A stretch of 64,000 nt of DNA from Bacteroidota bacterium. GTDB lineage: Bacteria; Bacteroidota; Bacteroidia; UKL13-3. The first letter of the stretch is position 1, and every line of letters starts with the position of its first letter. The stretch spans positions 70,520 through 134,519 of the forward strand of contig JBKCPL010000031.1 in assembly GCA_046309355.1 (NCBI GenBank), written 5' to 3'. The notes beneath the pieces were generated by a model that ran no database searches, had not been told where the DNA came from, and saw only the letters and a list, made by a program, of their open reading frames with translations. Shown in pieces: positions 27,946 through 44,300 of the stretch. The position numbers were made by a program, and so were the translations under genes.

Positions 27946-28083
27946 GCTGCAAGTATAGCACAAAGTCTGTATTGACTTAACGTATCCTAGCCTGTTGAAC
28001 CTTCAAAACAACCGACTTCTATGCACATAAACTGCTCATATCTATACCCTTATTAATAAATTTTGCTATTGAACGGGCAGCAT

Positions 28084-28091
28084 TAAATTTG
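28084..28091 (+). promoter_or_regulatory. Candidate -7 box (TAAATTTG) upstream of glmM.
   Basis: It matches TAnnTTTG. It overlaps the TTG 'start' at 28089 used in the ORF track, which argues for a downstream GTG start. Confidence 0.35.
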
Positions 28092-28115
28092 CGGTCCTTA
28101 AAAACATATACATAC

Positions 28116-29528
28116 GTGACGTTAATCAAATCCATTTCAGGAATACGAGGCACCATAGGAGGTGCAGCAGGCGATGCCTTAACACCCATTGATATTGTAA
28201 AATATACGGCTGCTTTTGCATCCATCATGAAAGGGAATCACGCATCGTGCAGTATTGTAGTGGGCCGAGATGCCCGAATTTCGGGTGATATGGTAAACCG
28301 ATTAGTAACCGGCACATTACTGGGGATGGGCATTGATGTAGTTGACCTTGGACTTTCAACCACGCCAACGGTAGAAGTTGCCGTAAAAGATGAAAAAGCT
28401 CAGGGAGGTATCATACTTACTGCAAGCCACAATCCCAAACAGTGGAATGCTTTGAAACTTTTGGACAGCAATGGAGAATTCATATCGGAAGACTTGGGGA
28501 AGCAATTACTGGCGCTGGCCGATTCACAGCAATTCTCATTTGCCGAAGTAGATAAACTAGGTACACTAATCCACAAACACGACTGGCTAAAAAAACATAT
28601 TGATAAAATTCTGGCTTTGGATTTGGTTGATTCAGACGCTATCCGTTCACGCAAATTTAAAATTGTAGTGGATGCGGTAAACTCTTCAGGTGGAGTAGCA
28701 GTACCTATGCTTTTAAAGGCATTGGGAGTAGATAATGTTATCGAGTTGTACTGTACACCCGATGGAAAATTTCCACACAATCCGGAGCCTTTGCCCGAGC
28801 ACCTGACTGAAATTTCTTCGTGGGTAAAACGTCATCAAGCCGATTTGGGCATTGTAGTGGACCCGGATGTAGACCGACTGGCATTGGTATGCGAAGACGG
28901 ACAGCTTTTCGGAGAAGAATACACCTTGGTATCGGTAGCTGATTATGTGCTTCGAAATACTACTGATGAGGTGTTGAAACAAAAAGGATTTAACCGTCAT
29001 ACCGTATCTAACCTTTCATCAACCCGTGCACTTCGCGATGTAACTGAAAAATCAGGTGGAAGCTATTCGGCAAGTGCTGTAGGTGAAGTGAATGTGGTAA
29101 AGATGATGAAAGAAACCAAAGCCATTATTGGGGGCGAAGGAAACGGTGGTGTTATACTTCCCGAATTGCATTACGGACGAGATGCATTGGTAGGCATAGC
29201 TTTATTTCTATCGAATCTGGCCAGACAAGCTAAACTTTGCTCTATTCTGCGTAGTTCATATCCCGATTACTTTATTGCTAAAAAGAAGATTGAACTGACA
29301 CCGGAAATAAATATTGATATGCTGATGGAACGTATCAAAGACAAGTATAAAAAACAACCTATTAACACTACCGATGGAGTTAAAATTGAGTTTGACAAAG
29401 AGTGGGTTCACCTGCGCAGATCGAATACCGAACCCATCATACGTATATATGCCGAAAGCCAAAGTGAAACAACTGCCGAAAACCTGGCCGAAAAACTCAT
29501 TTCGGATATGAAGCAATTCATCAACTAA
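28116..29528 (+). CDS. glmM: Phosphoglucosamine mutase / phosphohexomutase.
   Basis: SGIRGTIGG is the active-site Ser loop, TASHNP is the phosphoserine signature and ...GGEGNGG is the sugar-binding loop. The start is moved to the GTG at 28116 (MTLIKSISGIRG) because the 28089 start is TTG and overlaps the putative -7 box. Confidence 0.75.
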   Translation: MTLIKSISGIRGTIGGAAGDALTPIDIVKYTAAFASIMKGNHASCSIVVGRDARISGDMVNRLVTGTLLGMGIDVVDLGLSTTPTVEVAVKDEKAQGGIILTASHNPKQWNALKLLDSNGEFISEDLGKQLLALADSQQFSFAEVDKLGTLIHKHDWLKKHIDKILALDLVDSDAIRSRKFKIVVDAVNSSGGVAVPMLLKALGVDNVIELYCTPDGKFPHNPEPLPEHLTEISSWVKRHQADLGIVVDPDVDRLALVCEDGQLFGEEYTLVSVADYVLRNTTDEVLKQKGFNRHTVSNLSSTRALRDVTEKSGGSYSASAVGEVNVVKMMKETKAIIGGEGNGGVILPELHYGRDALVGIALFLSNLARQAKLCSILRSSYPDYFIAKKKIELTPEINIDMLMERIKDKYKKQPINTTDGVKIEFDKEWVHLRRSNTEPIIRIYAESQSETTAENLAEKLISDMKQFIN

Positions 29529-29540
29529 TAAATCTTTATC

Positions 29541-30638
29541 ATGTCATTAAAATGCGGAATAGTAGGGTTACCTAATGTTGGGAAATCAACCTTGTTCAAT
29601 TGCTTATCCAATGCCAAGGCACAAGCTGCCAATTTCCCTTTTTGCACCATTGAACCCAATGTGGGTGTAATTACGGTTCCTGATGAGCGGCTGAATGAAT
29701 TAGCAAAATTGGTAACCCCTCAGCGAGTTGTACCTACTACCATAGAAATAGTGGACATTGCCGGATTGGTAAAAGGAGCCAGTAAAGGCGAAGGTTTAGG
29801 CAATCAATTTTTAGCCAACATTCGAGAAACCGATGCCATTTTGCATGTACTCAGATGTTTTGATAATGACAATATTATTCATGTGGATGGCTCTGTTGAT
29901 CCGGTAAGGGATAAAGAGATCATTGATACTGAGCTTCAACTAAAGGACTTAGATTCGGTAGAAAAAAAACTACAACGTGTATCACGTGCAGCTAAAACTG
30001 GCGATAAGGATGCCGCTAAGGCCGAAGCAGTTTTACTGAAATACAAGACCCAGCTGGAACAAGGTAAAAGTGCGCGAACGGTTGAGGTATCGGAAGATGA
30101 CAAGAAGCACATAGAAGATTTGCAGTTACTGACCATAAAGCCGGTATTGTACGTATGCAATGTGGATGAAGCATCCGTAGTAAATGGCAATAAATACGTA
30201 GATAAGGTACAACAAGCTATTCAGGATGAAAATGCAGGTCTGCTAATAATTAGTGCAGCAATCGAAGCCGATATCGCACAGCTTGAAAATTACGATGACC
30301 GTGTAGCGTTTCTGTCCGACTTAGGTTTAACCGAATCGGGTGTGGCCAAACTTATACGTGAAGCGTATGCATTGTTAAATCTGATAACCTATTTTACAGC
30401 AGGTGTTCAGGAAGTACGTGCATGGACCATTACACGGGGCATGAAAGCGCCTCAGGCTGCAGGTGTAATTCATACCGATTTTGAAAAAGGGTTTATACGT
30501 GCCGAAGTAATCTCATTCAATGATTATACCCGACTGGGCTCAGAAGCTGCCGTAAAAGAAGCCGGTAAAATGAGGGTTGAAGGAAAGGATTACATTGTAC
30601 TAGATGCTGATGTGATGCACTTTAGGTTTAACGTTTAA
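29541..30638 (+). CDS. ychF: Ribosome-binding ATPase YchF.
   Basis: [23 protein letters not shown]...[12 protein letters not shown] is the canonical YchF N-terminus. The C-terminus is a TGS domain. Confidence 0.95.
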
Positions 30639-33600
30639 TCCTGCACCACTTTATCTATTTCAGCAAGTATCTGTTTCTTCAAATCGTCAATTGAATTAGC
30701 CAGCAAGGCTGATTTCTTATCAAAGTCAACTGAGCGAATACGCATATTCAACACAAAGGTATCGCCATGTTTCTTGTAGGTACCGCTAAGCTTGTACGCC
30801 TCGGGAAAGTCTTTAACATCCAAAAATACCAGCGACCCGCCTTTAGCTCCTGAAACGCTTCTTTCGTTTAGCTCACCATCAATTAACTTACTTAAGCCGA
30901 GTTGGTCTTCCGACTCATCCACATCAATAAAAGTAGAACGTACAAACATAGGCTTGGCCTGCGCCAGCGGAATACTTGAACGAACGTCTTCGCTTACCTG
31001 ACCTATATCAAAACTTTCCGCTCCGTAAGGGCTGAATACTTTTGGCTCTTGTATTCCGCCAATACCTGCAGCTATTTGCGGAACACGCTCGCGGGCAAAA
31101 TTGAGCAAAGGCAATACGTCCACAAACTCACTCTCACGCAGCGATGCACCTTTTATACCCTGAAGCAACGAATAGGTGAGCAGACCTTGACCGTAACGTG
31201 AGGCCTCGTAACTTACTGCATCAGCAGCGCAACCAGTAATGATGTGTGTGCCCGTGCGGTCTTTTAAGCGATCGAGGGCTCGCAGTGCAGAAGAAGAAAT
31301 ATCGCGTTTAGAAACCAGATTATCTACCACCCTGCCCGATGCACATGCATCAATCATCATCACCTGTTTGAGTGCACGTATCTGTTTTAACTTTTCGGTG
31401 AGTTCACCCGATGAAATTCCGACTTTAGCTCTCAACTGAGGATCTGAATACGCTTCAGCCTGAGCTGAATGAGCAGTTTGTGTCAGGTAATAAAAATCTC
31501 CATCGGCACCCCCAATATTGATACCGTGGCCGCTCAAGTAAAGCAAAAACAAATCTTCCGGTTTAGCCTTTTGACTTACTTCATCAAGCACCTGAAGTAT
31601 TTGCTCCTTACCCGGCTTATAAGACGATGCAGTATCGGTTGTAATAAGATAGCCGAATACCTGCGAACGGTTAAATAATTTTGACGCTGATAAATTGATA
31701 GCCCTGTAAATATCTGTGGCATCTTTAGACGCATATCTTAAATCAATAGATGATCCTTCGTAGTCAGATGTCCCAATACATACCACATATACCGATGGCT
31801 TAACCACAGCATTGGTTACTGCCTGCTTCAGCGGAATGCGTGCACCCCTGCTCACTATGGTTTCATCTAAATTGTAAGCCCTCACCTCTATGTCATTACT
31901 TCCACCTTTAAGAAAAGGATAACTGGCAGTAGGGAGAACAAGGTACAACGAATCCGATGATTCACTCACTGACTGTGGCCTAATATCGGTGATTACCTCT
32001 TTTCCATTTATAAACATAGTTGCCTTGCCTATACCCCCACCCTGGTTGTACAAAGTGATTTTCAAATCACCATTTTGCTGCTCTGGATTCTGCCATTCAA
32101 GTTTAACTTTCGGGTATAATTTTACTTCTTCAAATGTGTTGACCTTTCGAGCTGCCTCTGCTGAAATACCCAAAACCTTTTGAAGCAGATTGGGCTCATA
32201 GTATTTGGATTTCAACTGTGACAATTCAATAATTTCATTTCCTGCAACATAGTACATGAGTTTCATGGCACCGGGAGAAGCATCAAACATTCCTCCGGGT
32301 GTTATAACAACCCAATCGGCAGAATCAATTGGATAGAAAGAAGCCATTGGTTGCGATGTATGAATATCCCAAAACTTAACACACTGATCAAATCCTGTAC
32401 TAACAACAAAACTGTTAAATCTGAAAAATCCGTTTGCCTGGCGTTTGTGTCCCGTATATCTGTTTTTCTCTGAAACGGTTTCTTTCAGCCACATAACGAT
32501 ATCTGCATTGGGTGCATTGCTTATAATATCGGTATTGTTTATCAATGCATCCCATATGTTATATTTCAGGTCAATAATTTGCGATGTAGCCGCAGCAGCA
32601 TCAATAGCTACAATGCTGGGATTAATCCCAAACGAATAAAATTTGCCGTTATCGTATCGTATTTTCTGTGCCCCATTGGTACGTTGTGCAGGGAAAATTT
32701 CCAAGCGCTTGGCGGTTTTAGCATCCCATAAAATTACGGTTGAATCAGTTGAACCGGTAGCTATATATTTTCCATCAGCAGAAAATGCTCCACAGGTAAC
32801 CATTGACCGATGAGCCGCAAGTGTAAAAAGACGTGCACCTGTTTTCAAATTCCATACAGCAGAGGTTCCATCTTTTGATGTAGTAAGCGCGAGCGAATCG
32901 TTCCATACATCAATATCCGTGATTATATCACTATGCCCTTTCAGTACGTTCATATACGTGCGGTCTGAGCGCTTAAACACATATACGTTCCCATCTCGGG
33001 AGCCTGAAAGAATTAAGTCGTTTCCTGAAAATTTTGCAGCCAGAAATTCGGATTGCCCTGCACGTCTTAATGAGCCTGTATGATTGATAATATTAAATAG
33101 CCTGATTTGATTGGTACGACCTGCAAAAATCAATTCGCCTGACTGGGCATGCATATCGGCCTCGTTAAAGTTGAAACTATATCCTCGTAACAAAGGTTTC
33201 GCATTGGTTCCATTAAAGCTGAACACAGCATTGCCTGAACTTAATATGGCTGCTGTTGGCATAACCGAAATGGCATCAGCCGAAAACGGGAGTGTAGCTA
33301 CACGTTGTGCTTTGGCATTATCCAGTAAAAAGATGTGGCCGCTTTTATTAATGGCATAAGTTAGGTTATTGAATACAAACACGGAAGCCGCATCTGTGAG
33401 TGTGCCGGCCGGCTGTTGTTTATTTTGCTGCAGGTCGTACTGTATCAACTCACCTTTAGCAGTGAGTAGCCATAGTGTATTTTTACGCAAAAATGCATGA
33501 ATAATTTTTTCCGGTAATTGAATTATACGCAGCGGTTCGGGTTGATTGATATCGCGTTCAATACATTTTCCTGTAATATCAACCGATATACATGTTGAAT

Positions 33601-34108
33601 TTCCTGTTGCAGCAAGCAGCACCACTTCATCGTAAGCTTCATAGTTACGCACAACTTCGCCAGTGGAAAGCGATACTGCCTGAATGCTTTTATCAGTAGC
33701 ATATGAAAGTAAAAATTTATTGTCGGCAGAAAGCGCCAATTTCTTCACTGCCCCCCGATGGTGAATGAATTCTTTGATGACCTGAGCGGTAGCAATGTTC
33801 CAAAGCTTAATGGTGTGATCGGCAGATGCACTGAAAAAGAATTTCCCATTGGCGGACACGGCCAGAGCGTGAACAGCATCCTCATGCTGTTCATAACTTC
33901 GTATTTCTTTTTTCTCGTTTACATTCCACAGCTTAATGGTTTTATCGCGGCTGGCAGTAAGCACATACTGATTATCGGACAAGGCTACAACATCGTGAAT
34001 AATACTGCTGTGGCCTAACGGCAATACCAGCTCAGGTTTTTGTGCGTAAGTGTTGTGCAAACACAAAAAGCACACTATGTACGATATGTACAGCCATTTA
34101 TTCAGCAC
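30635..34108 (-). CDS. Secreted 1157-aa multidomain protein with an N-terminal signal peptide, two WD40 beta-propeller regions and a C-terminal caspase-like (clan CD, C14-type) peptidase domain.
   Basis: The start is GTG. The signal peptide is [23 protein letters not shown]. More than ten WD repeats are present (TIKLWNV, TIKLWNI, SAVWNL, TVILWDA, CVKFWDI ...) across aa 35-590. The caspase block spans aa 772-1000. It begins [13 protein letters not shown], the catalytic His is in LYLSGHG (codon 31526..31528) and the catalytic Cys is in MMIDACASG (codon 31343..31345). Confidence 0.8.
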
Positions 34109-35711
34109 AATATACTTTTACTCCGTATTTGTCAATATATAACCACGTGTCGTCTTTACGAACCAGGCATAGCCCCTCTACAAAATCCAATATCTGATCG
34201 TATGTAGGCTCTACAATCTGCCGGTTGTTGCGATCGACAAGGCCCCATTTACCGCCCTTTTTAACTTTAGCTAAACCTTCAGCATTAAAGTCAGAAATGT
34301 CATCGTAAATTACAGGAATAACTACTTCGCCTTTGCGGTTTAATATGCCCCACATCTTATTGGCTCGCACACGAGCATAGTCCCCTTTAAAATCATAAGC
34401 ATTGTCGTATGTAATTGGAATGACTACGGTATTGCCTTTATTTACGTATCCGAACTTACCGTCTTTTTGCACCATAGCCAGCCCATTGTAGAAATTTTGT
34501 GCCTTCTCATATCCGGCAGCAATAAGCAGTTTACCGGTTTCATCCATAAATCCCCATTTGCCATTTTTAGCCTTTACGGGGTAAAGTACTTTTTGGTATT
34601 GCAACATAATTTTCTGCAACTTGGAAACATTCGGGTAGTTTTTGTATTTATTCAGGAATAGTGTTATAGTGCTTGTATCGCTGTAGTTGATTTCCATTTG
34701 CTCAATCATTTGCCAGGCATCTTTTACATAGCGGTTAGTTGGATACGACTGTATAAAATTGGAATAGGTTAAAGAGGTTTTTTCTCCTTTAATGGCAAGC
34801 AAATAAATCTGCTCCTCGGCTTGTGCTATGTAGGGACTTGTTGGATACTGATTGATAAAAAGCTGAAACTCTTCTATGGTTTTTCCTTTTGTTCTGGTCT
34901 CGTACAACATCTTTTCATATTTGCTTTTAGCTTCTGTCAAATACATGTTATCCGCACGTGTTCTAATAAACTCTTCAAACGCTTCCAGGGTGTTATCAAG
35001 TAAACACTTATCATATATTAAACGGTCAAATTTCTCTTTAGCTTCTTTGGCATACGGACTTTTTGGATGTTTCTTTGAGAATTCCAGATAGGAGTCGGGT
35101 TGCTTATCGTTGGTGTTTTCCTGATAAAACTTTAAATCATAATTGTCTTTTGCCGTTTTTGCTTCTGCTGCGTCCGGATATTTTTTAAGAAACTGATCAA
35201 AAGCAGCAGATGTGTTTTCCTTTTCTGCATCGGCAAAAGCCAGTGCATTTCGTTTTTGTAGCACTTCCGCTCTAAGGTGGGTTTCGTGAAATGAATTGAG
35301 GTATTGCTCAATTGCTGACAGAGTTCCTGTTCTTAATGCAATCGCATAGGCAGACTTTTCAATTTGTTCTTTGAGCGCTACAATTTCAGTTTCGCCTATT
35401 TGTACTGAACCCATTTCTTTTTTCATTGCCGAATTGGCATCACGGGCTGTCTGTTGTGCTTTGATGATAAATTCATATCCTTTTTCATAGTTAAATGCCG
35501 GATTATCTTCTGCTGCAAAATATCGGGCCATACCATACAAGGCTGCGGGATGTGCAGGGTAATCGGCCAATATGTCTTCAAGTATATCTTTTGCTTTTGT
35601 GTACTGTTTCTCATTTAGTAGCTTAATTCCCTTTTCTATTTTGGTGGCTGATACAGTCAGGGCTAAAATTGCCAATGCAAAGGCTAATGTAATTTTCTTG
35701 TATGCAATCAT
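34098..35711 (-). CDS. Secreted protein with N-terminal TPR-like helical repeats and C-terminal WG (KWG-type) beta repeats.
   Basis: The signal peptide is MIAYKKITLAFALAILALTVSA. At least five copies of a helical motif of about 38 aa are present, of the form ..F..F..KYP.S.Y...A. The C-terminus has at least four WG repeats (KWGFMDETGKLLI, KFGYVNKGNTVVIP, KMWGILNRKGEVVIP, KWGLVDRNNRQIVEP). Confidence 0.6.
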   Translation of the reverse strand: MIAYKKITLAFALAILALTVSATKIEKGIKLLNEKQYTKAKDILEDILADYPAHPAALYGMARYFAAEDNPAFNYEKGYEFIIKAQQTARDANSAMKKEMGSVQIGETEIVALKEQIEKSAYAIALRTGTLSAIEQYLNSFHETHLRAEVLQKRNALAFADAEKENTSAAFDQFLKKYPDAAEAKTAKDNYDLKFYQENTNDKQPDSYLEFSKKHPKSPYAKEAKEKFDRLIYDKCLLDNTLEAFEEFIRTRADNMYLTEAKSKYEKMLYETRTKGKTIEEFQLFINQYPTSPYIAQAEEQIYLLAIKGEKTSLTYSNFIQSYPTNRYVKDAWQMIEQMEINYSDTSTITLFLNKYKNYPNVSKLQKIMLQYQKVLYPVKAKNGKWGFMDETGKLLIAAGYEKAQNFYNGLAMVQKDGKFGYVNKGNTVVIPITYDNAYDFKGDYARVRANKMWGILNRKGEVVIPVIYDDISDFNAEGLAKVKKGGKWGLVDRNNRQIVEPTYDQILDFVEGLCLVRKDDTWLYIDKYGVKVYCAE

Positions 35712-35719
35712 AGGTAAAC

Positions 35720-37165
35720 TCAATATTCAATAACTATTTTATCTTTCGCATTTCCTTTAATGTTTGGATTTTGTTGCTGTCCGATGAGTCTTGCCTGGTA
35801 AGGCACTCCTGCATTGTGATCATTAACAAAATCATACACCTCATCCAGCGTTACTTTGTTGTCCGTATTTTTATCCGTTTTCTGCGGATTTTGCAAGGCT
35901 TTCAGAAAAAAGTATGTAAACATCCCATGCTGTTGTTCAGGGTACCAGTTAGCTGTTTCGTTGCTTGATGTTGCCGTAATAACAGCACCGTTTGGCAGCT
36001 CTACCTTGGTTTCTTCAACCGGAATACCCAGCGGACTGATATTTTCATAAATATTGCCTGAATAGCATGCATCGATAATAACTGTTGTAAATTTAGTTCT
36101 GATCTTAGCCAGATTTCCATAGAGCAACTCTGTTGGATATCCACCAAACTGAACGTTATTGGGCTTACACTCTACCGGCACCAGGTAGCTTTTTTTGTCG
36201 TACTGCGAGGGAGCTCCGTGTCCTGAATAATAAATGAACACTTCGGCATTGGGGTTTTTAACCAATTCATACAACTCAGCTTTGTAATTTTCACGTGTAC
36301 CGAATATGGCTTCAAAATCGCCTTTGGCTGCATTCTCCCGGTATATGACATTACCCGGCATAAAACCCATTACATCTACCAGGTATTTTTTAATCATAAC
36401 AGCATCATTAATTGCAAAATCAACATCCTTTCCTTTGATGTTTTTGTAATCCTTATTCCCAATAACCACTGCGTATGCATTTTCATTTTTACTTTTGGTT
36501 ACCGGAAGGTTTATATCAACATCTGAGTTCCCTACTGATATTACCTTAACTCGTTCGTTGATTTTTTGCACGTTGGAACTCAGATTAATATCAATGTTTC
36601 CGATATTAATGTCGAGTGCGGTTACGAAGTGATTCTGAACTGAACGGTCAAGCTGATACTCTGTATCCAGAAAAGGGTCTTTAATAACTAGGTCAGTCAC
36701 AGCAAACTCTTCACCTTGCAGTGTATACTTGATGTCATTAAAAATTAGTTCGTGCAAATTATCCTGAAAACTCTGAGCCTGCTCACCATGTGGAACTTTA
36801 ATAAGAAACGGCAGCATATTGGCTACTGTAATTTTATAGGTTTCATTTTCGCTGTCGTATACGGCATCAATTTTAGACCAGTCAATAACCTTTTCAGCTA
36901 TGGATGCAATTACAATCTGGGTGAATTCATCCACTTTACGCTGCTTGTTTTGCTTATCAACCCGCACCTGATATTCTTCCAGTTTTTCCATCGGATCTTT
37001 TTGTAACCACTCGGTAAGTTTAGCTTTCACGGTGGCTTCAATCTGCTCTGCATAAGTTGGTTTGTAGGTAACCATTATTTCGTTGCTGAACGCAACCTGT
37101 TTCTGCGCAAACACATGAAGTGTTAGCCAAATGAAACATACAACCAATAGTACTCCTTTTTTCAT
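35720..37165 (-). CDS. Secreted protein whose C-terminal half is a caspase-like (clan CD, C14-type) peptidase domain. The N-terminal domain is unknown.
   Basis: The signal peptide is MKKGVLLVVCFIWLTLHVFAQ, and a GGAGG Shine-Dalgarno sequence sits 5 nt upstream of the ATG at 37165. The caspase block begins YAVVIGNKDYK. The His is in FIYYSGHGAP (codon 36218..36220) and the Cys is in VIIDACYSG (codon 36065..36067). Confidence 0.75.
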   Translation of the reverse strand: MKKGVLLVVCFIWLTLHVFAQKQVAFSNEIMVTYKPTYAEQIEATVKAKLTEWLQKDPMEKLEEYQVRVDKQNKQRKVDEFTQIVIASIAEKVIDWSKIDAVYDSENETYKITVANMLPFLIKVPHGEQAQSFQDNLHELIFNDIKYTLQGEEFAVTDLVIKDPFLDTEYQLDRSVQNHFVTALDINIGNIDINLSSNVQKINERVKVISVGNSDVDINLPVTKSKNENAYAVVIGNKDYKNIKGKDVDFAINDAVMIKKYLVDVMGFMPGNVIYRENAAKGDFEAIFGTRENYKAELYELVKNPNAEVFIYYSGHGAPSQYDKKSYLVPVECKPNNVQFGGYPTELLYGNLAKIRTKFTTVIIDACYSGNIYENISPLGIPVEETKVELPNGAVITATSSNETANWYPEQQHGMFTYFFLKALQNPQKTDKNTDNKVTLDEVYDFVNDHNAGVPYQARLIGQQQNPNIKGNAKDKIVIEY

Positions 37166-37178
37166 ATTTACCTCCATT

Positions 37179-38186
37179 TTATTCTACTGAACAAGCGCAG
37201 CGGAAGCCAATGCTACCAAAGCTATTGCTCATATATTCAAAAAATTTATAGTTAAGCATCAACTCAAGCTCATCGCTGTATATCGAGCCACCTTTTACAG
37301 CTTTCTTATCCGGATCAGAAAGTTCTGCATCTTCGCACCATTCAGATGCATTGCCTGACATGTCGTAGATAAATAGCTCATTGGCCAATTTTGTTCCAAC
37401 GGTTCCCAAAAGTGTCAAATCAGCATTTTTAGTATACCATGCAATGTCACGAATAATATTACCGCCACTGTACACATAACCTCTACTGTACAGTCCACCA
37501 CGTGCTGCATATTCCCACTCAGCTGCCGAAGGCAGGCGCTTATTTTTCCACTTGCAATAGGCCTGCGCATCATTCCAAGAAACAAATACAACCGGTTCTT
37601 TCCATTCGTCTTGCTTTTTTACCTGTCCGTTAGGGTTGTTAAACCAACGGGCATTTTTGTTCAACTCCCACTTGTTGTTCTTAGTTCGTGCGTAAGCAGG
37701 CATCTTTTTCTCGGCATCTGTGGTGTAGCCTGTAGCCTTTACAAATTGCTCAAAATCTTTGTACGATACTTCGTACTGATCTATCCAATAGTCTTTTTTT
37801 ACCTGATTATTCTTTTCTGAGTCTGATGTTACGTAGATCATGCCCGATTTGTACTTAAGTGCTTCAACACGAATTTTCCCTTTGCTGTGGAACAGTGTAT
37901 CATTCAGGTAAGGATTCCATGAAAACTTCATATTGCCATGTGGCTTGATGTTATCTCCAACGTCTCCAATAGCATATTTCAACTCAAAGGTGATGGTATC
38001 TTTCTGACTGGGAACAAACCAGGCTCTTACTTTATACCTGCTGTTGGTATCGGTATCTTCCAGTGCATAACTCACCTCTATAATTCGCTGATCATCTTTT
38101 TGCGCAACCACATTTTTCAAAAACTCCTGTGCTTTCAAGAGTTCAGGTGCAATTAACAATGCTATATATACTATCGCGTATCTCAT
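37179..38186 (-). CDS. Secreted protein with an FGE-sulfatase (SUMF1/formylglycine-generating-enzyme fold) domain.
   Basis: The signal peptide is [20 protein letters not shown]. The C-terminal domain shows [16 protein letters not shown]...[15 protein letters not shown]...GNASEWCED...GGS...GFRCA, all conserved FGE-sulfatase blocks. Confidence 0.75.
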
Positions 38187-38190
38187 CTTT

Positions 38191-39135
38191 CTATCTTTCT
38201 ATAGTTATATCCTTATAATCAAAGGTACATTGTGCACTACCCATTTTCAGCTTATGTACCCAGCGCTGAAACTCTTCTGATTCCATATTCGAAGGTAACT
38301 TATATTTTTCAGTTGCAACTCCCGTATACAGGGTATTTGTGGAGGAAAGCATTGGGGATGGAATAGGTTGCTTAGAGAATATAACAAACATTCGCAACTG
38401 CTCCCTGTACTTACCATCGCTTACATATGCACTTATGTTATGAAACCCTGCATTCTCAAATACATTATTACGTGAACTAAAGAATAGATAGTCTTCGTTG
38501 GCATTTACCGGCATTCCGTTTTCAAATTCGGTTGATGCTTTGTCGTAAGGTAAAAGTCGATAACTTTTACCATCAAACATATCGTAATACACCATAAGGT
38601 AACCCGATTCGGGAGAGCGGAAATACAAATAGAACGGATCACCATGTTTGTAGACGGTTGCCTGGCAACGCCTAAACTCGTCCTCGCAGGGTGTAGGACG
38701 TGCAATAAAGTCTACTTTCGGTTCGGTTAGTTCCCTAACTCGTACTTTTAGTGTACATATTAACTCAACAATATCGGTTTTTTGACCTCCCAGTTTTACC
38801 GTTTGCCGTACTTCTTCAAATTGTTTATCGAGCACTTCCACTACTTCACCCTTTACAAATGTATTGGCTATGGTACTGAACATAGATTTTGTTTCGATGC
38901 GTGAACCGTTGTTGCTATTTTCTATGTAAGTAGAATTACCCTGTATAATAACCTTACCGAATGCTTTCTCAATGGCATTGACTGTAGCCAGTTCTTCGGT
39001 TTTATTTTCAGCCTCTAGTCTGCTTTCATTTCGAGTCCATTCTCGCTGTGCTGTACCTGTTACAACAGCTATATTTTGTGCATGTACATAATACGCCATG
39101 AATTCTATTACAAGAAGTAAACAAATTTTATGCAT
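38191..39135 (-). CDS. Hypothetical secreted protein.
   Basis: The ATG at 39135 gives the signal peptide [20 protein letters not shown]. There is no family I recognise. Gaps to both neighbouring genes are short. Confidence 0.45.
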
Positions 39136-39149
39136 GCTAGTGGAGTGTT

Positions 39150-39770
39150 TCAATTGAGCGTTAGAAGTTTATCGAGTTGTTCGCCTGTCAGTTTATTTGA
39201 AGGGCTGTTCGCAATAACTGATTTAGCAGCTTCTACAGTTTGTTTCAAGGGATAGCATACGTGAACACTCACTTCATAGGTATTGCCCTGCTGCCTGTAT
39301 ATTTTAAGTATCGGCTCAACATATCCAAGCCGTGTTGTTATGGTATTTTTGGTTTGCCTAACCAATTCACTAACCGATTGTAATTCGTCTTTCGCAATGC
39401 GGGCATTCGACAAATTGGCCTCCATGACTGAAATTAATGCCGACTCAATAAGACCGGCTACGGCTATTTTAGCAAATTCAACCGCTTGTGCCTCAGCTAC
39501 CGACTTTACATTGGCCGAAGCCTGTGCATCGGTAACTACATTTACAGACATTCCGCGCTCGTCTTTAAGGCGCTGTTTTTGCCAAACTGTACTAAGCTGC
39601 TCAGATAAAGGCAATGAGCCCGGGAAGGTAACCCAGCCTTCTTTTTCAAGTCGCTTCAACTCTTTCTTAAGTTCTTTTTGCTGAGCATCTGATTGTGCAT
39701 AGGACTCCTGAGTATTGAATACCAATAAACATAGCCATACTAGCTGAAATATATATTTTTTCATATTCAT
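39150..39770 (-). CDS. Hypothetical secreted protein, possibly LPP20-like.
   Basis: The internal ATG at 39770 gives MNMKKYIFQLVWLCLLVFNTQESYAQ. After a charged coiled-coil-like stretch comes an Ala/Val-rich amphipathic region (AEAQAVEFAKIAVAGLIESALISV). Confidence 0.4.
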   Translation of the reverse strand: MNMKKYIFQLVWLCLLVFNTQESYAQSDAQQKELKKELKRLEKEGWVTFPGSLPLSEQLSTVWQKQRLKDERGMSVNVVTDAQASANVKSVAEAQAVEFAKIAVAGLIESALISVMEANLSNARIAKDELQSVSELVRQTKNTITTRLGYVEPILKIYRQQGNTYEVSVHVCYPLKQTVEAAKSVIANSPSNKLTGEQLDKLLTLN

Positions 39771-39886
39771 GAATATAAACTGCGTCATCAATTTTTTACG
39801 AAGACGTAATGTATTGAATACCCGAAAATAACAATTCTTTCCTATTGGCAATAAAAAAAGAACCCACATTAAAAAGTCTTAATCTC

Positions 39887-40861
39887 TTAGCTGATTCGGT
39901 TCATCAAATCCATAGCACTGTTTACCAGCAATCTTTTCCGGTCTTGTGAAACAGATATTTTCTCTAATTTTTCAAATGCTGACTTCAGGTAATGCTCTTT
40001 GTGTGTTTCGCATACAGCTCGAATATCTAGTCTATTAAAAACATCTATCGTACCGTTAATTTTAGCAGCTAAGTCTGTAGAAAGCTGCCATCTGTCAAGC
40101 TCTTGATGGTCGTGCTCGGTTGCCCTGTTTCGGGCTTCTACCATGAGCAATGTTTTTTTATTGGCAGCAATATCGCCCCCGATTGTTTTGCCTACACTGG
40201 ACTCATCGCCAAATGTATCCAGCAAATCGTCCTGAATCTGAAATGCAATACCGATATTTTTTCCAAATTCATACATGCAACTAGCATCGTGAGTGGATGC
40301 TCCTGCTGTGATTGCTCCTAATTGCAAGGCAGCTCCCAACAATACGGCTGTTTTTAAAGTTATCATCTGTATGTACTCGTCTACGCTTACCTGTTCTCGT
40401 TGTTCAAAATCCATGTCGAGTTGCTGACCTTCGCATACCCCGATAGCAGCCGCATTGAATACCTTCAGCAATTCGGGAAACACTGCAGCATCTGACTGCG
40501 ACAGCAATTCAATGGCCTTTATCATCATCAAATCACCTGAAAGTATGGCAACAGTTTCGTTCCACTTCTTGTGTACGGTAGGCTTGCCTCTTCTCAATTC
40601 AGCTTTATCCATAATATCATCGTGAACCAAGGTGAAATTATGAAAAACTTCGACCGCTATGGACGTATGAAAAGCTTGCTCAGGCTTACCTCCAAAAAGG
40701 TCATTCGCCATCAATACAAGAACAGGCCTAAGGCGTTTGCCGCCTAGCGACATAAAATAATGTATAGGATCGTATAAGTTTGAAGGACTAGACCCAAAAT
40801 TGTATCCGGCTAAGCGTTCCTCTACTAGGGTTTGTATTTGGCGGTAAGATGTAAAGTGCAT
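39887..40861 (-). CDS. ispB: Polyprenyl diphosphate synthase of the IspB/octaprenyl-diphosphate synthase type.
   Basis: The first DDxxD motif is LVHDDIMDKAELRRGKPT and the second is FQIQDDLLD. Confidence 0.85.
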   Translation of the reverse strand: MHFTSYRQIQTLVEERLAGYNFGSSPSNLYDPIHYFMSLGGKRLRPVLVLMANDLFGGKPEQAFHTSIAVEVFHNFTLVHDDIMDKAELRRGKPTVHKKWNETVAILSGDLMMIKAIELLSQSDAAVFPELLKVFNAAAIGVCEGQQLDMDFEQREQVSVDEYIQMITLKTAVLLGAALQLGAITAGASTHDASCMYEFGKNIGIAFQIQDDLLDTFGDESSVGKTIGGDIAANKKTLLMVEARNRATEHDHQELDRWQLSTDLAAKINGTIDVFNRLDIRAVCETHKEHYLKSAFEKLEKISVSQDRKRLLVNSAMDLMNRIS

Positions 40862-40885
40862 GTGGGTGTCTTAATCTGCAATAAA

Positions 40886-40920
40886 CAAAAAACGGAAGAC
40901 AAAGTTGTCTTCCGTTTAAT
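40886..40920 (-). terminator. Rho-independent terminator downstream of trxA.
   Basis: An aaacggaagac / gtcttccgttt stem is followed on the minus strand by a T-run. Confidence 0.6.
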
Positions 40921-40939
40921 AAATAAAGATTAGTTGCTG

Positions 40940-41260
40940 TTAAGCCAACTGTGCGTTCAGTTTATTGGCCAAAACATGTTTAGGTACTGCGCCTACTTGT
41001 TTATCTACCAGCTGACCGTTTTTAAAGAACAACAAAGCAGGAATACTCATAATACCATACATAGTAGCTACCTGTGGATTAAAATCTACGTTTAATTTCC
41101 CGATTATTGCTTTGCCATCGTATTCTTTAGCTAATTCTTCAACCACAGGACCTACCATGCGGCACGGCCCACACCATTCTGCCCAAAAATCAACAAGCAC
41201 CGGTTTGTCTGATTCTAAAACAACTCTTTGAAAGTTGCCGTCTGTAATTTCTATTGCCAT
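40940..41260 (-). CDS. trxA: Thioredoxin.
   Basis: WAEWCGPCRMV is the WCGPC active site and the length is 106 aa. Confidence 0.95.
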   Translation of the reverse strand: MAIEITDGNFQRVVLESDKPVLVDFWAEWCGPCRMVGPVVEELAKEYDGKAIIGKLNVDFNPQVATMYGIMSIPALLFFKNGQLVDKQVGAVPKHVLANKLNAQLA

Positions 41261-41359
41261 ATTCTTTTTTATTTAAATCTGTGTTATTCGGTGCGCAATT
41301 TATAATCCAATCGTCAAGATAACACATATTGGCAGTCATTGTTTGTCCACCTGCTGTGT

Positions 41360-44300
41360 TCATTTTATTTTATAACTGATGTCGAGCTGATTAAGTGACG
41401 TTATAAACTCGTTAGTAAATGACACTTTATATTTTGTTGAACTAGTTGATACCGCTAACTTTTGCTCATCATCATGCACATTTATTTTAATGCCCACACC
41501 TCCTTTATTATTCTCCAGCAGGTGTGTAAACTGTTGAATAAACGGCTTATCAATCTGTTCCGATTTTACAGTCAAAGTGACACGTTGCAACAGCTTTTCC
41601 CTAACCTCGGGCAAAAGGATTATCTGATTTACTTTGAACTCATACTGATCGGTAGAGTTAAACCTTAGGCGCATGGCACCTTTTATGTGCAGCATATGTC
41701 CCGATGCTATCAGGTGTTTAAATTTCAGGTAATCTTCGCTCCACATGGTAATTCGGTACGAATCGGTATAGTCTTCCAGCGTAAAATTAGCGTAGGGCTT
41801 ATTGTTTTTCGAAATTTTCTCGAACACCTCTGTGACTATTCCTGCAATGGATACCTCTTTGTTTCGGATGTTGGCCAATTCAATAAGCGGAGTAATATTA
41901 AAGTGAGTAAACTCAAATCTATAGTCATCAAGCGGGTGACCAGATAAGTACATGCCAATTACTTCTTTCTCACGCCTGAGTTTTTCCATTAAACTCCAAG
42001 TCTCGCAAGGTTGAATGACCGGTGTAGCCAATTGCACAGTGCTTCCGCCTCCAAACAACGATTGCTGATTGGCAGCTTGATTGGTTTGCAGTGCATTGGC
42101 ATATTTTATAGCTTTCTCGATTAGGTTTGGTTCTTCACCGGTTTCTGGGAAAAAGTACTGTGCCCGATGTATGTTTTCAAAGCAATCGAATGCACCGGCC
42201 AATGCCAGCACCTCAAAGTTGCGCTTGTTTACGGTTCGTAAGTTTACCCGTGTGGTAAGTTCAAAAATGCTGCTGTAGGGACCATTCTGCTCACGCTCGG
42301 CTATAATTTCGGCAACGGCTGCCTCACCCACTCCTTTAATACCCATTAGGCCAAAACGTATTTCGCCTTTCTTATTGGGTGAAAATTTTTCGAGCGATTC
42401 ATTAATATCCGGACCTAATACAGGAATACCCATACGTTTACATTCTTCCATGAAGAACGTAACTTTATCAATATTGCTCTGGTTGTGGGTGAGCACACAG
42501 GACATGTATTCAGCCGGATAATGCGCTTTCAGATAACCGGTTTGAAAGGCCACAAATGCGTAGCATGTAGAATGCGATTTGTTAAATGCATACGAGGCAA
42601 AAGCTTCCCAGTCAGTCCACACTTTTTCAAGTACCGTTTTGTCATGACCAAGTTCCACAGCGCCTTTCAAAAAAGTTTCTTTCAGGCTATCGAGTGTGCC
42701 TTTATCTTTTTTGCCCATCGCTTTTCGCAGGGTATCGGCCTGCCCCTTCGAGAAACCGGCCAGCTTTTGCGAAAGCAACATTACCTGTTCCTGATACACT
42801 GTGATACCGTATGTATCTTTCAGGATTTCTTCCATAGCTGCTATATCATAAGCCACCTGCTGCTTGCCATGTTTTCGGGCAATGTAATCAGGAATGTAAG
42901 CCAATGGACCCGGCCTGTAAAGCGCGTTCATGGCTATTAAATCCTCAAAACGGTCGGGCTTCAGCTCCTTCAGGTATTTTTGCATTCCTGTACTTTCAAA
43001 CTGAAACGTTCCGTTGGTTTCTCCACGGGCAAAAAGCTGAAGTGTTTTTTCATCATTCAGCGGAATAGCATCAATATCCAAATCTATTCCGTGGTTGTGC
43101 TTAATCAGTTTTAGCGTATCCTTTATAATGGATAGGTTTTTTAAACCCAGAAAATCCATTTTTATTACGCCTGCATCTTCTATAACTTTTCCTTCGTACT
43201 GTGTGATCAGCAGGTTTACGTCTTTAACAGTTGCAACGGGAACTATTTCAGTCAGGTCTTTCGGAGCAATGATAATTCCGGCTGCATGTATGCCTGTTCC
43301 ACGTACAGAGCCTTCCAGTACCAGCGCTTCTTTCAGTACCTCCGATCTTAAATCTTTGCCTGCGTATATTTCGCGCAATTTCTTTACATCGTCCAGCTCT
43401 TCTGATGCAAGCGTTTCTTCTTCTTTCAGGCTTTTCTCTCCTTCCAGCGGAGCATGCAAAACCCTATCCAGGCTAATGCCCGGCTTTTCGGGAACGAGCT
43501 TTGCCAGTATGTTCGACTCGGCAAGTGGCAAATCAAGTACTCGGGCCACATCCTTAATACTCATCTTAGCAGCCATTGAGCCGTAGGTAACAATGTGTGC
43601 CACCTGATTTTTGCCGTATTTGTCCACCACATAATCAATAACCCGCTGTCTGCCTTCGTCATCAAAGTCGGTATCAATATCGGGCATCGATTTACGTTCG
43701 GGGTTTAAGAATCGTTCGAACAGCAAGTCGTACTTTATCGGATCTATATTTGTTATACCAATGCAATACGCTACAGCCGACCCGGCAGCTGAACCCCGAC
43801 CGGGCCCGACAAATACCCCCATATCTCGACCGGCTTTAATAAAATCGGATACAATTAAAAAATAGCCTGCAAAACCCATCGTGCGAATGGTGTGCAATTC
43901 AAATTTAATACGCTCTTCTATTTCCGGAGTTAGTTCTTTGTACCGTTCGCGTGCTCCAGTCCATGTTAGATGTTCGAGGTAATCATCCTGTGATAAAAAT
44001 CCTTCAGGCAACGGGAAATTAGGCAACAGTATATCACGCTTCAAATCAAGTAACTCTACTTTATCAACAATAAGGTTCGTGTTATCAATGGCCTCGGGTA
44101 TATCTGAAAACAGATCAGACATTTCCTGGGTGGTTTTGAAGTAAAACTGATCGTTGGCAAACGCAAAACGCTTGCCCTTCCCTATGGTATCTTCATCGGC
44201 AAATTCCTTAACGCTGGGTGTACTTTTTTTCTCTCCGGTATTAATACATAACAATATATCGTGTGCATTGTAATCCTTCTGGTCTACATAATGCGAATCG

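Follow-up and report, generated by a model that had tools for sequence, protein, structure and literature searches.

The subject of this work is a gene in a 64,000-nucleotide stretch of a Bacteroidota genome (hereafter, the window; positions 70,520–134,519 of contig JBKCPL010000031.1, GenBank assembly GCA_046309355.1). The gene, which we refer to as the WD40-caspase gene, occupies window positions 30635..34108 on the reverse strand and encodes a 1157 aa protein that joins WD40 propellers to a caspase-type protease domain. We propose, with a probability of roughly 0.55, that the product is a Sec-exported, soluble cysteine endopeptidase of the periplasm with a built-in targeting platform. In order, the protein consists of (i) a signal peptide, (ii) around 14 WD40 blades, (iii) a conserved linker, (iv) an immunoglobulin (Ig)-like beta-sandwich, (v) a Peptidase_C14 domain, and (vi) a 120-aa C-terminal domain. 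Bacterial caspase-like proteases have been studied almost entirely as cytoplasmic effectors of cell death or defence. The locus described here represents a cross-phylum family in which an apparently active caspase-type enzyme, predicted to be sent to the periplasm, is combined in one protein with a variable double propeller and with a domain whose fold is that of envelope proteins. If confirmed, this would extend regulated proteolysis by caspase-type enzymes to the envelope of the bacterial cell.

The protease domain, of the metacaspase/orthocaspase type, spans aa 766–1037 (30998..31813; all features of this gene and its operon lie on the reverse strand). Pfam profile PF00656 matches aa 776–1026 with a score of 55.7 bits (cut-off 21.4; E=7e-15). 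An earlier reading, made by a model from the sequence alone, had proposed a caspase-like domain with a catalytic His861 and Cys922; both residues are found at the codons given there (31526..31528, in the motif LYLSGHG, and 31343..31345, in MIDACASG, respectively), and they form an invariant dyad. All 28 aligned homologues share six residues (D796, D852, H861, D920, C922 and E968), and 145 of the 147 family representatives retain both catalytic motifs (SGHG and DAC). Its profile score and its catalytic motifs make the WD40-caspase a member of Peptidase C14. The best NCBIfam model for the domain is NF047832 ('caspase, EACC1-associated type'; E=5e-16); membership of that subfamily was rejected, the score of 58.8 bits being far below the 140-bit cut-off and no EACC1 component being present.

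An AlphaFold2 model of the protein, built from 28 full-length homologues (predicted local distance difference test, pLDDT, 79.5; predicted template modelling score 0.70), gives the protease domain a beta-alpha-beta order at pLDDT 74–94, in which the His lies at the end of strand 853–865 and the Cys at the end of strand 914–923. This predicted strand order would fit the caspase-haemoglobinase fold (His after the third main strand, Cys after the fourth). D796 aligns with the Asp of the GCVND motif of metacaspase-4, and D920 lies two residues before Cys922. Because D796 and D920 are invariant in the substrate pocket, Arg/Lys specificity is predicted: the acidic pocket should direct cleavage after Arg or Lys, not after Asp. 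Immediately downstream of the catalytic Cys is a disordered loop (aa 924–935; 31304..31339), longer than any other part of the domain with pLDDT <50 (one at aa 962–964 has 3 residues). Three basic residues, R926, K934 and R935, lie in the loop; at position 935, 23 of 28 homologues have Arg or Lys. Caspases and metacaspases carry a processing linker at this position. The loop is a candidate autoprocessing linker between the two protease halves and, going by the model, a plausible site of self-activation.

It could be argued that the caspase domain is a pseudo-protease, retained for binding only within a non-catalytic scaffold. Pseudo-orthocaspases are reported to exist in bacteria (PMC6426788). 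However, a decayed active site is hard to reconcile with the invariance of His861, Cys922, D796, D920 and E968 in every aligned homologue and with the retention of both motifs in all but two of the family representatives; we consider this explanation extremely unlikely.

Several features of the N-terminus point to export. The signal peptide (aa 1–22; 34043..34108) comprises a basic n-region (MLNK), a 13-residue hydrophobic core and a c-region ending in HNTYA|QK. This is the layout of a type I signal peptide—small residues at positions −3 and −1, and Gln at +1—with a predicted signal peptidase I cut before Gln23. An Ala-Gln junction of this kind is the Q-rule signature of Bacteroidetes signal peptidase I substrates (PMC5837995, PMC10653852). 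Ala22 and Gln23 are each kept in 21 of 28 aligned homologues. In nearly all full-length homologues, drawn from several phyla and usually with an ATG start, a signal peptide is followed by the conserved beginning of the first blade, QKPELV(V/L)xxGH(S/T). Among the 147 best family representatives, 119 have a signal-peptide-like N-terminus by a strict hydrophobicity test, and the rest are mostly fragments or near misses; signal peptides were judged from sequence features together with this test. The signal peptide recognized in the sequence-only reading is thus borne out by its conservation across the family and by the A|Q junction, with the cleavage itself being predicted. The same reading implied that an exported WD40-caspase is a rarity, which is wrong: export is the norm in a very large family that NCBI already names 'caspase family protein'.

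As to the destination of the protein, neither C13 nor C16 lies in a lipobox context (the predicted junction is A|Q), and classification as a lipoprotein was rejected on these grounds. NCBIfam and Pfam scans of the protein found no C-terminal domain of the type IX secretion system (T9SS; TIGR04183/Por_Secre_tail). Type IX cargo was likewise rejected, given the missing sorting domain and a C-terminal domain with an alpha/beta, TolB-N-like fold. Since the protein has neither a T9SS domain nor a lipobox, it is predicted not to be secreted to the cell surface.

The C-terminal domain (aa 1038–1157; 30638..30997) had been described as a tail of about 150 aa. A tail is indeed present; it is, though, a folded domain of 120 aa. 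It was identified by fold search only, as sequence profile searches did not resolve it. In the fold search, the modelled tail matches the TolB N-terminal, LptE, CsgG and LpoB folds, and the matches listed are periplasmic and outer-membrane-associated proteins. Going by the model, it might plausibly mediate docking or oligomerisation on the inner side of the outer membrane. Membership of the TolB family was rejected: the domains stand in the opposite order, the propellers are of the WD40 and not the PD40 type, no sequence similarity is found, and the resemblance is limited to the fold of the tail.

The genomic setting is in line with an envelope location. The WD40-caspase gene is the last of six same-strand genes separated by gaps or overlaps of no more than 11 bp. 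All six products have signal peptides, and an A|Q junction is encoded by four of the five upstream genes. The tail fold, the lack of a T9SS domain and the signal peptides of the six operon products support the periplasmic location put forward in the earlier reading, and we strongly infer from these sequence features that the WD40-caspase is exported to the periplasm.

The case for export depends on where translation begins. The open reading frame of 1157 codons, as read from the sequence, is real; it starts with a GTG codon that lies in an 11-bp overlap with the stop of the upstream gene. A protein identical to the WD40-caspase is present in public metagenomes (P0001), in Bacteroidota metagenome-assembled genomes (MAGs), under the NCBI name 'caspase family protein'. 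In NCBI, the gene models MFN4971903.1 (1141 aa) and MFN6341698.1 (1143 aa) place the start of this protein at TTG codons 17 or 15, while the JGI and ENA models begin at GTG 34108; the disputed interval is 34060..34108. If the TTG starts were correct, the WD40-caspase would be a cytoplasmic protein and the hydrophobic stretch an untranslated leader; the position of the GTG codon inside the overlap with the neighbouring gene could also be held in favour of this. Four observations speak against it. Firstly, distant homologues have a signal peptide followed by QKPELV..GHS from unambiguous ATG starts. Secondly, orthologues of 88% and 75% identity retain the same hydrophobic N-terminal segment, in frame and with conservative substitutions, which also supports the GTG start claimed in the sequence-only reading. 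Thirdly, the tail has the fold of envelope proteins. Fourthly, all five operon partners are predicted to be exported. A cytoplasmic location is therefore judged very unlikely, and the conservation of the signal peptide across the family argues that the NCBI models start too late and hide the export signal.

Turning to the putative targeting platform, the first WD40 propeller covers aa 23–350 (33059..34042) and the second aa 351–596 (32321..33058), as delimited by Pfam WD40 and other beta-propeller families, AlphaFold2 strands and Foldseek. For WD40 (PF00400) the score is 139 bits (cut-off 27), and aa 32–160 and 320–590 are matched by many propeller families. The model contains 57 beta strands at aa 26–610, corresponding to about 14 four-stranded blades, or two seven-bladed propellers; this predicted structure supplies the blade count that the earlier reading suggested obtaining. 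Compared with the PDB by Foldseek, the model is most similar to tandem double WD40 propellers (2ymu, E=1e-31); EML-like, Utp21 and Apaf-1 propellers are also among the best matches. The blades at aa 159–350 are degenerate in sequence, and the least conserved stretch of the whole protein, with 13.8% identity to distant homologues, lies in the first propeller. Two runs of WD40 repeats had been claimed at aa 35–590. The two propellers stand, but the gap between the runs does not: the region is continuous, with degenerate blades at around aa 160–350.

Between the propellers and the protease, the earlier reading placed a middle region of unknown fold (aa 600–765). The region is indeed distinct and can now be divided into two parts. 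The linker (aa 597–660; 32129..32320), modelled as a hairpin plus short helices, is the segment best conserved with respect to distant homologues (44% identity), and its D609 and P639 are invariant among aligned homologues. The second part (aa 661–765; 31814..32128) is an all-beta, seven-stranded sandwich with the motif NxGGGIG. Its strands, at aa 667–761, are modelled at pLDDT 71–87, and G691, G692 and N738 are invariant among homologues, giving a GG..N signature. From its predicted secondary structure only, this domain appears to be Ig-like. Pfam and PDB profile searches with the linker/Ig region and the tail gave only chance-level matches (OspA, E=0.013; malate dehydrogenase, E=0.054).

The WD40-caspase is an unexceptional representative of a very large family that already carries an annotation but whose function is unexplored; what the present analysis mainly adds is a domain map and the prediction that a caspase-type enzyme is located in the periplasm. 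With the full protein as query, 1,556 matches were obtained at E<=1e-10, many covering 85–100% of its length, from Bacteroidota (Ferruginibacter, Puia, Saprospiraceae, Aequorivita, Phaeodactylibacter), Pirellulaceae, Acidobacteriota, Spirochaetota and Chlorobi; the named matches are called 'caspase family protein'. The C-terminal 562-aa module was searched against 1.84 billion cluster representatives (clustered at 50% identity) and found in at least 1,927 sequence clusters at E<=1e-30. Of these 1,927 matches, the best 150 cover the complete module at 42–57% identity. The module is always C-terminal, in proteins of 600–2050 aa (median 1232). If the predicted activity and location are confirmed, this constant module of about 560 aa would provide an entry point to the family, with its catalytic residues, predicted Arg/Lys specificity and predicted activation loop.

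The two halves of the protein have diverged at different rates. The propellers share approximately 22% identity with distant homologues, the caspase domain 42% and the linker 44%. The same contrast is seen among paralogues: one Bacteroidota MAG (locus L001, 2–13531) carries three complete head-to-tail copies and a fourth, partial copy that is cut by the contig end, with 27–31% identity in the N-terminal half versus 52–72% in the C-terminal half. Similar arrays of three to four paralogues occur in Saprospiraceae and Lewinellaceae MAGs (L002, 11758–25155; L003, 5550–17838). The sequence-only reading assigned the propellers the role of a platform for recognizing substrates or partners. That role is something we only infer, and the faster divergence of the propellers than of the protease module is consistent with it.

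We favour the following sequence of events, each step of which is a proposal. On export, signal peptidase I would cut after Ala22, leaving Gln23 at the mature N-terminus; in Bacteroidota, an N-terminal Gln is typically cyclised to pyroglutamate. The variable double propeller at the mature N-terminus would most likely then capture a protein partner or substrate. It is followed by a constant C-terminal unit of about 560 aa, consisting of the linker, the Ig-like spacer and the metacaspase-type C14 domain with its His861/Cys922 dyad, which is expected to cut after Arg or Lys. Activation may occur through a self-cut in the basic, disordered loop at aa 924–935, and the TolB-N/LptE-like domain would probably anchor the enzyme by docking it on an envelope partner or by driving oligomerisation. 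Presumed co-expression with the five other exported operon proteins would make the whole a module for selective proteolysis in the envelope.

A constant protease module attached to fast-diverging propellers, in tandem arrays of three to four paralogues in Saprospiraceae, Lewinellaceae and other Bacteroidota MAGs, is also what might be expected of an immune system of the envelope. Under such a scheme, the propellers would sense foreign periplasmic proteins (phage tail or ejection proteins, bacteriocins, type VI effectors); this is possible, though unlikely. The further step, given the same slim chance, is that ligand binding clusters the protein via its TolB-N-like domain and that the caspase then destroys either the invader or the cell's own envelope proteins, killing the infected cell. 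In addition to the divergence pattern, the operon holds other binder-type domains (an FGE-sulfatase domain of C-type-lectin fold, WG repeats and TPRs), cytoplasmic WD40/TPR-caspase proteins have been proposed to be conflict effectors (PMC7159879), and one homologue adjoins CHAT-TPR proteins and an ECF sigma factor. The surroundings fit less well: the neighbours are housekeeping genes (dnaE, thioredoxin, polyprenyl synthetase, ychF), and there is no defence island and no shift in base composition. PADLOC defence models gave only weak, generic 'caspase' and repeat matches, no diversity-generating repeats are seen, and several homologues stand alone among metabolic genes.

A bolder extension of the immune scheme, and one we regard as decidedly unlikely, is that the protein is an ATP-independent, periplasmic counterpart of the apoptosome, in which a diversifying double propeller detects intruders and clustering through the TolB-N-like domain activates the fused caspase, which would go on to degrade the intruder or take apart the envelope. 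Were this true, the family, which numbers more than 1,900 clusters and includes paralogues in tandem arrays, would constitute an unrecognised layer of envelope immunity. Apaf-1 structures (3j2t, 3sfz) are among the structural matches, and both systems comprise a caspase-family protease together with a tandem 7+7(8) WD40 propeller. Apaf-1, however, depends on an ATPase domain and acts in the cytosol by recruiting a caspase that is a separate protein, whereas here everything is on one polypeptide that has no nucleotide-binding domain and is predicted to reside in a compartment lacking ATP. Similarly, no STAND nucleoside triphosphatase (NTPase; NACHT, NB-ARC) of the kind found in apoptosome-like WD40-caspase conflict proteins is present in the protein or the operon, and Pfam/NCBIfam scans of the WD40-caspase and its five operon partners identified no NTPase family. 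Those conflict proteins are cytoplasmic, in contrast to the WD40-caspase with its conserved N-terminal signal peptide.

A nutritional function is a different possibility. In prolyl oligopeptidase, DPP-IV and tricorn, a propeller gates access to a peptidase, and the WD40-caspase propellers might analogously filter imported peptides for trimming in the periplasm. Designs that combine a propeller with a peptidase exist in the S9 and tricorn families, the present family is common among environmental Bacteroidota, Planctomycetota and Acidobacteriota that degrade proteins, and an S9/tricorn-like gene lies near a related caspase in another genome (locus L009). In the model, however, the Ig-like spacer and the linker intervene between propellers and protease; two full propellers and a docking domain exceed what gating requires; and the variability of the propellers is far greater than would be expected of a structural lid. 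Moreover, no linkage to SusC/D, TonB-dependent or peptide transporter genes was seen in any locus examined. We think this function unlikely. Membership of the propeller-gated serine peptidases themselves (S9, tricorn) was rejected because no such Pfam family is present in the protein.

Returning to the preferred reading of a periplasmic endopeptidase with a targeting platform, a number of points weigh against it. The family's activity, location and cleavage are predictions from sequence and models. The sole PDB sequence match of the caspase domain is a weak one, to metacaspase-4 (E=0.014), and the folds of the caspase and Ig domains are likewise predicted from the model. The blades at aa 159–235 are modelled with pLDDT <50, and the faster divergence of the propellers could reflect relaxed constraint on repeats instead of changing targets. 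The TTG starts chosen by the NCBI pipeline, 14–16 codons downstream of the GTG, would delete the signal peptide. Finally, conservation of the operon partners does not extend to the loci of distant homologues, and several of these homologues stand alone.

Comparison with described systems places the WD40-caspase apart from each of them. In a 2012 survey (PMC3501461), WD40 is the commonest accessory domain of bacterial metacaspases (10.9%) and FGE-sulfatase the fifth; possible signal-peptide N-terminal helices and Bacteroidetes operons with multiple metacaspases are also noted there. According to two other papers (PMC7475262, PMC7159879), described WD40-caspases have an N-terminal protease and C-terminal WD40 repeats, are cytoplasmic or membrane-spanning, and often include a STAND NTPase. 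The cyanobacterial metacaspase-(NACHT)-WD40 proteins (PMC3501461, PMC7475262) have in common with our protein a Peptidase_C14 domain, the His-Cys dyad, an acidic pocket and WD40 repeats thought to mediate protein-protein interaction. They differ in that here the order is reversed, no NTPase is present, the protein is predicted to be wholly exported, and there is an Ig-like spacer and a TolB-N-like domain, neither of which is mentioned in those surveys. A literature search found no paper on the exported WD40-caspase architecture, a result that, with incomplete literature coverage, does not prove the architecture to be undescribed.

Gingipains and other exported clan CD peptidases of Bacteroidota are likewise exported caspase-like cysteine peptidases with an Ig-like domain and Arg/Lys specificity (the latter two being predictions for the WD40-caspase). 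As surface-secreted enzymes of family C25, gingipains have a T9SS C-terminal domain, whereas the WD40-caspase is a C14 enzyme with propellers and without that domain. TolB consists of an N-terminal TolB-N domain followed by a six-bladed PD40 propeller, has no protease and is encoded in the tol-pal operon; the likeness to it is one of fold only. With regard to NF047832, the best-scoring NCBIfam model, the distance from the EACC1-associated caspases is reflected in a score far below the cut-off.

The five genes upstream of the WD40-caspase gene encode predicted exported proteins of diverse type. Nearest to it, and overlapping its start by 11 bp, is a gene for a 541-aa protein (34098..35723) with YbgF/CpoB- and BamD-like TPRs, all below threshold, and four WG (KWG) repeats. 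With this TPR+WG protein and the TolB-N-like caspase tail, the operon bears a loose structural resemblance to Tol-Pal accessory proteins, by analogy only. Next is a second Peptidase_C14 caspase of 485 aa (35720..37177; PF00656, E=7e-18). This protein has a large family of its own (879 matches), whose members combine the same catalytic core with different partner domains: one WD40 propeller (in proteins of ~770 aa), CARDB, TPR, WG or ankyrin repeats, or PDZ plus an S41 peptidase. It is followed by a 335-aa FGE-sulfatase protein of C-type-lectin fold (37179..38186; PF03781, E=5e-40; signal peptide ...LKA|QE) and by a 320-aa protein (38191..39153) with a weak DUF4384 match, a homologue of which adjoins the related caspase in L009.

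The first gene of the operon (39150..39770) encodes a product of ~204–206 aa that belongs to no known family; a homologue search with it returned only close, unnamed relatives, and two homologues flank the related caspase in L009. The mechanically derived open reading frame of 239 aa, from ATG 39869, is probably too long. Orthologues measure 203–206 aa and the signal peptide begins at ATG 39770 or 39764, one of which is the likely true start; this leaves ~115 bp of non-coding DNA after the polyprenyl synthetase gene.

The operon is flanked by polyprenyl synthetase, thioredoxin and dnaE genes on one side and by ychF on the other, and the gene order from dnaE to ychF is the same in the 75% relative. 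A horizontally acquired island was rejected given this retained synteny and a guanine-cytosine content like that of the flanks. A cassette consisting of the ~205-aa unknown, the DUF4384-like protein and the ~485-aa caspase recurs around a 37%-identical caspase in an unrelated genome (L009, 5628–11149), which suggests that an exported caspase cassette is conserved independently of the WD40-caspase. Distant homologues of the WD40-caspase otherwise adjoin genes for an ECF sigma factor, an S8 peptidase or CHAT-TPR proteins. As the loci of distant homologues do not keep the operon partners, these partners cannot be essential to the core function of the family and are local additions.

Scans of the surrounding DNA yielded few further features. 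The Bacteroidetes −7 motif TAnnTTTG was found 77 times, versus 75 expected by chance, and not at all in the gap upstream of the operon. Positions 28000–42000 contain no template/variable-region repeats of a diversity-generating retroelement, and the FGE-sulfatase gene is therefore not a visible target of such an element; an Rfam scan of the same interval gave no matches. No gasdermin-type partner was detected in Pfam, NCBIfam and PADLOC scans of the operon, among which no search was aimed at gasdermins specifically. On its downstream side, the WD40-caspase gene runs into the convergent ychF (29541..30638; TIGR00092, E=1.5e-151). The 4-bp overlap reported in the sequence-only reading is exact (30635..30638), with the two stop codons interlocking. 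Upstream of ychF, the gene at 28089..29528 has its best match to the archaeal-type phosphoglucosamine mutase TIGR03990 (E=2e-152), versus E=1.5e-55 for the bacterial GlmM model TIGR01455.

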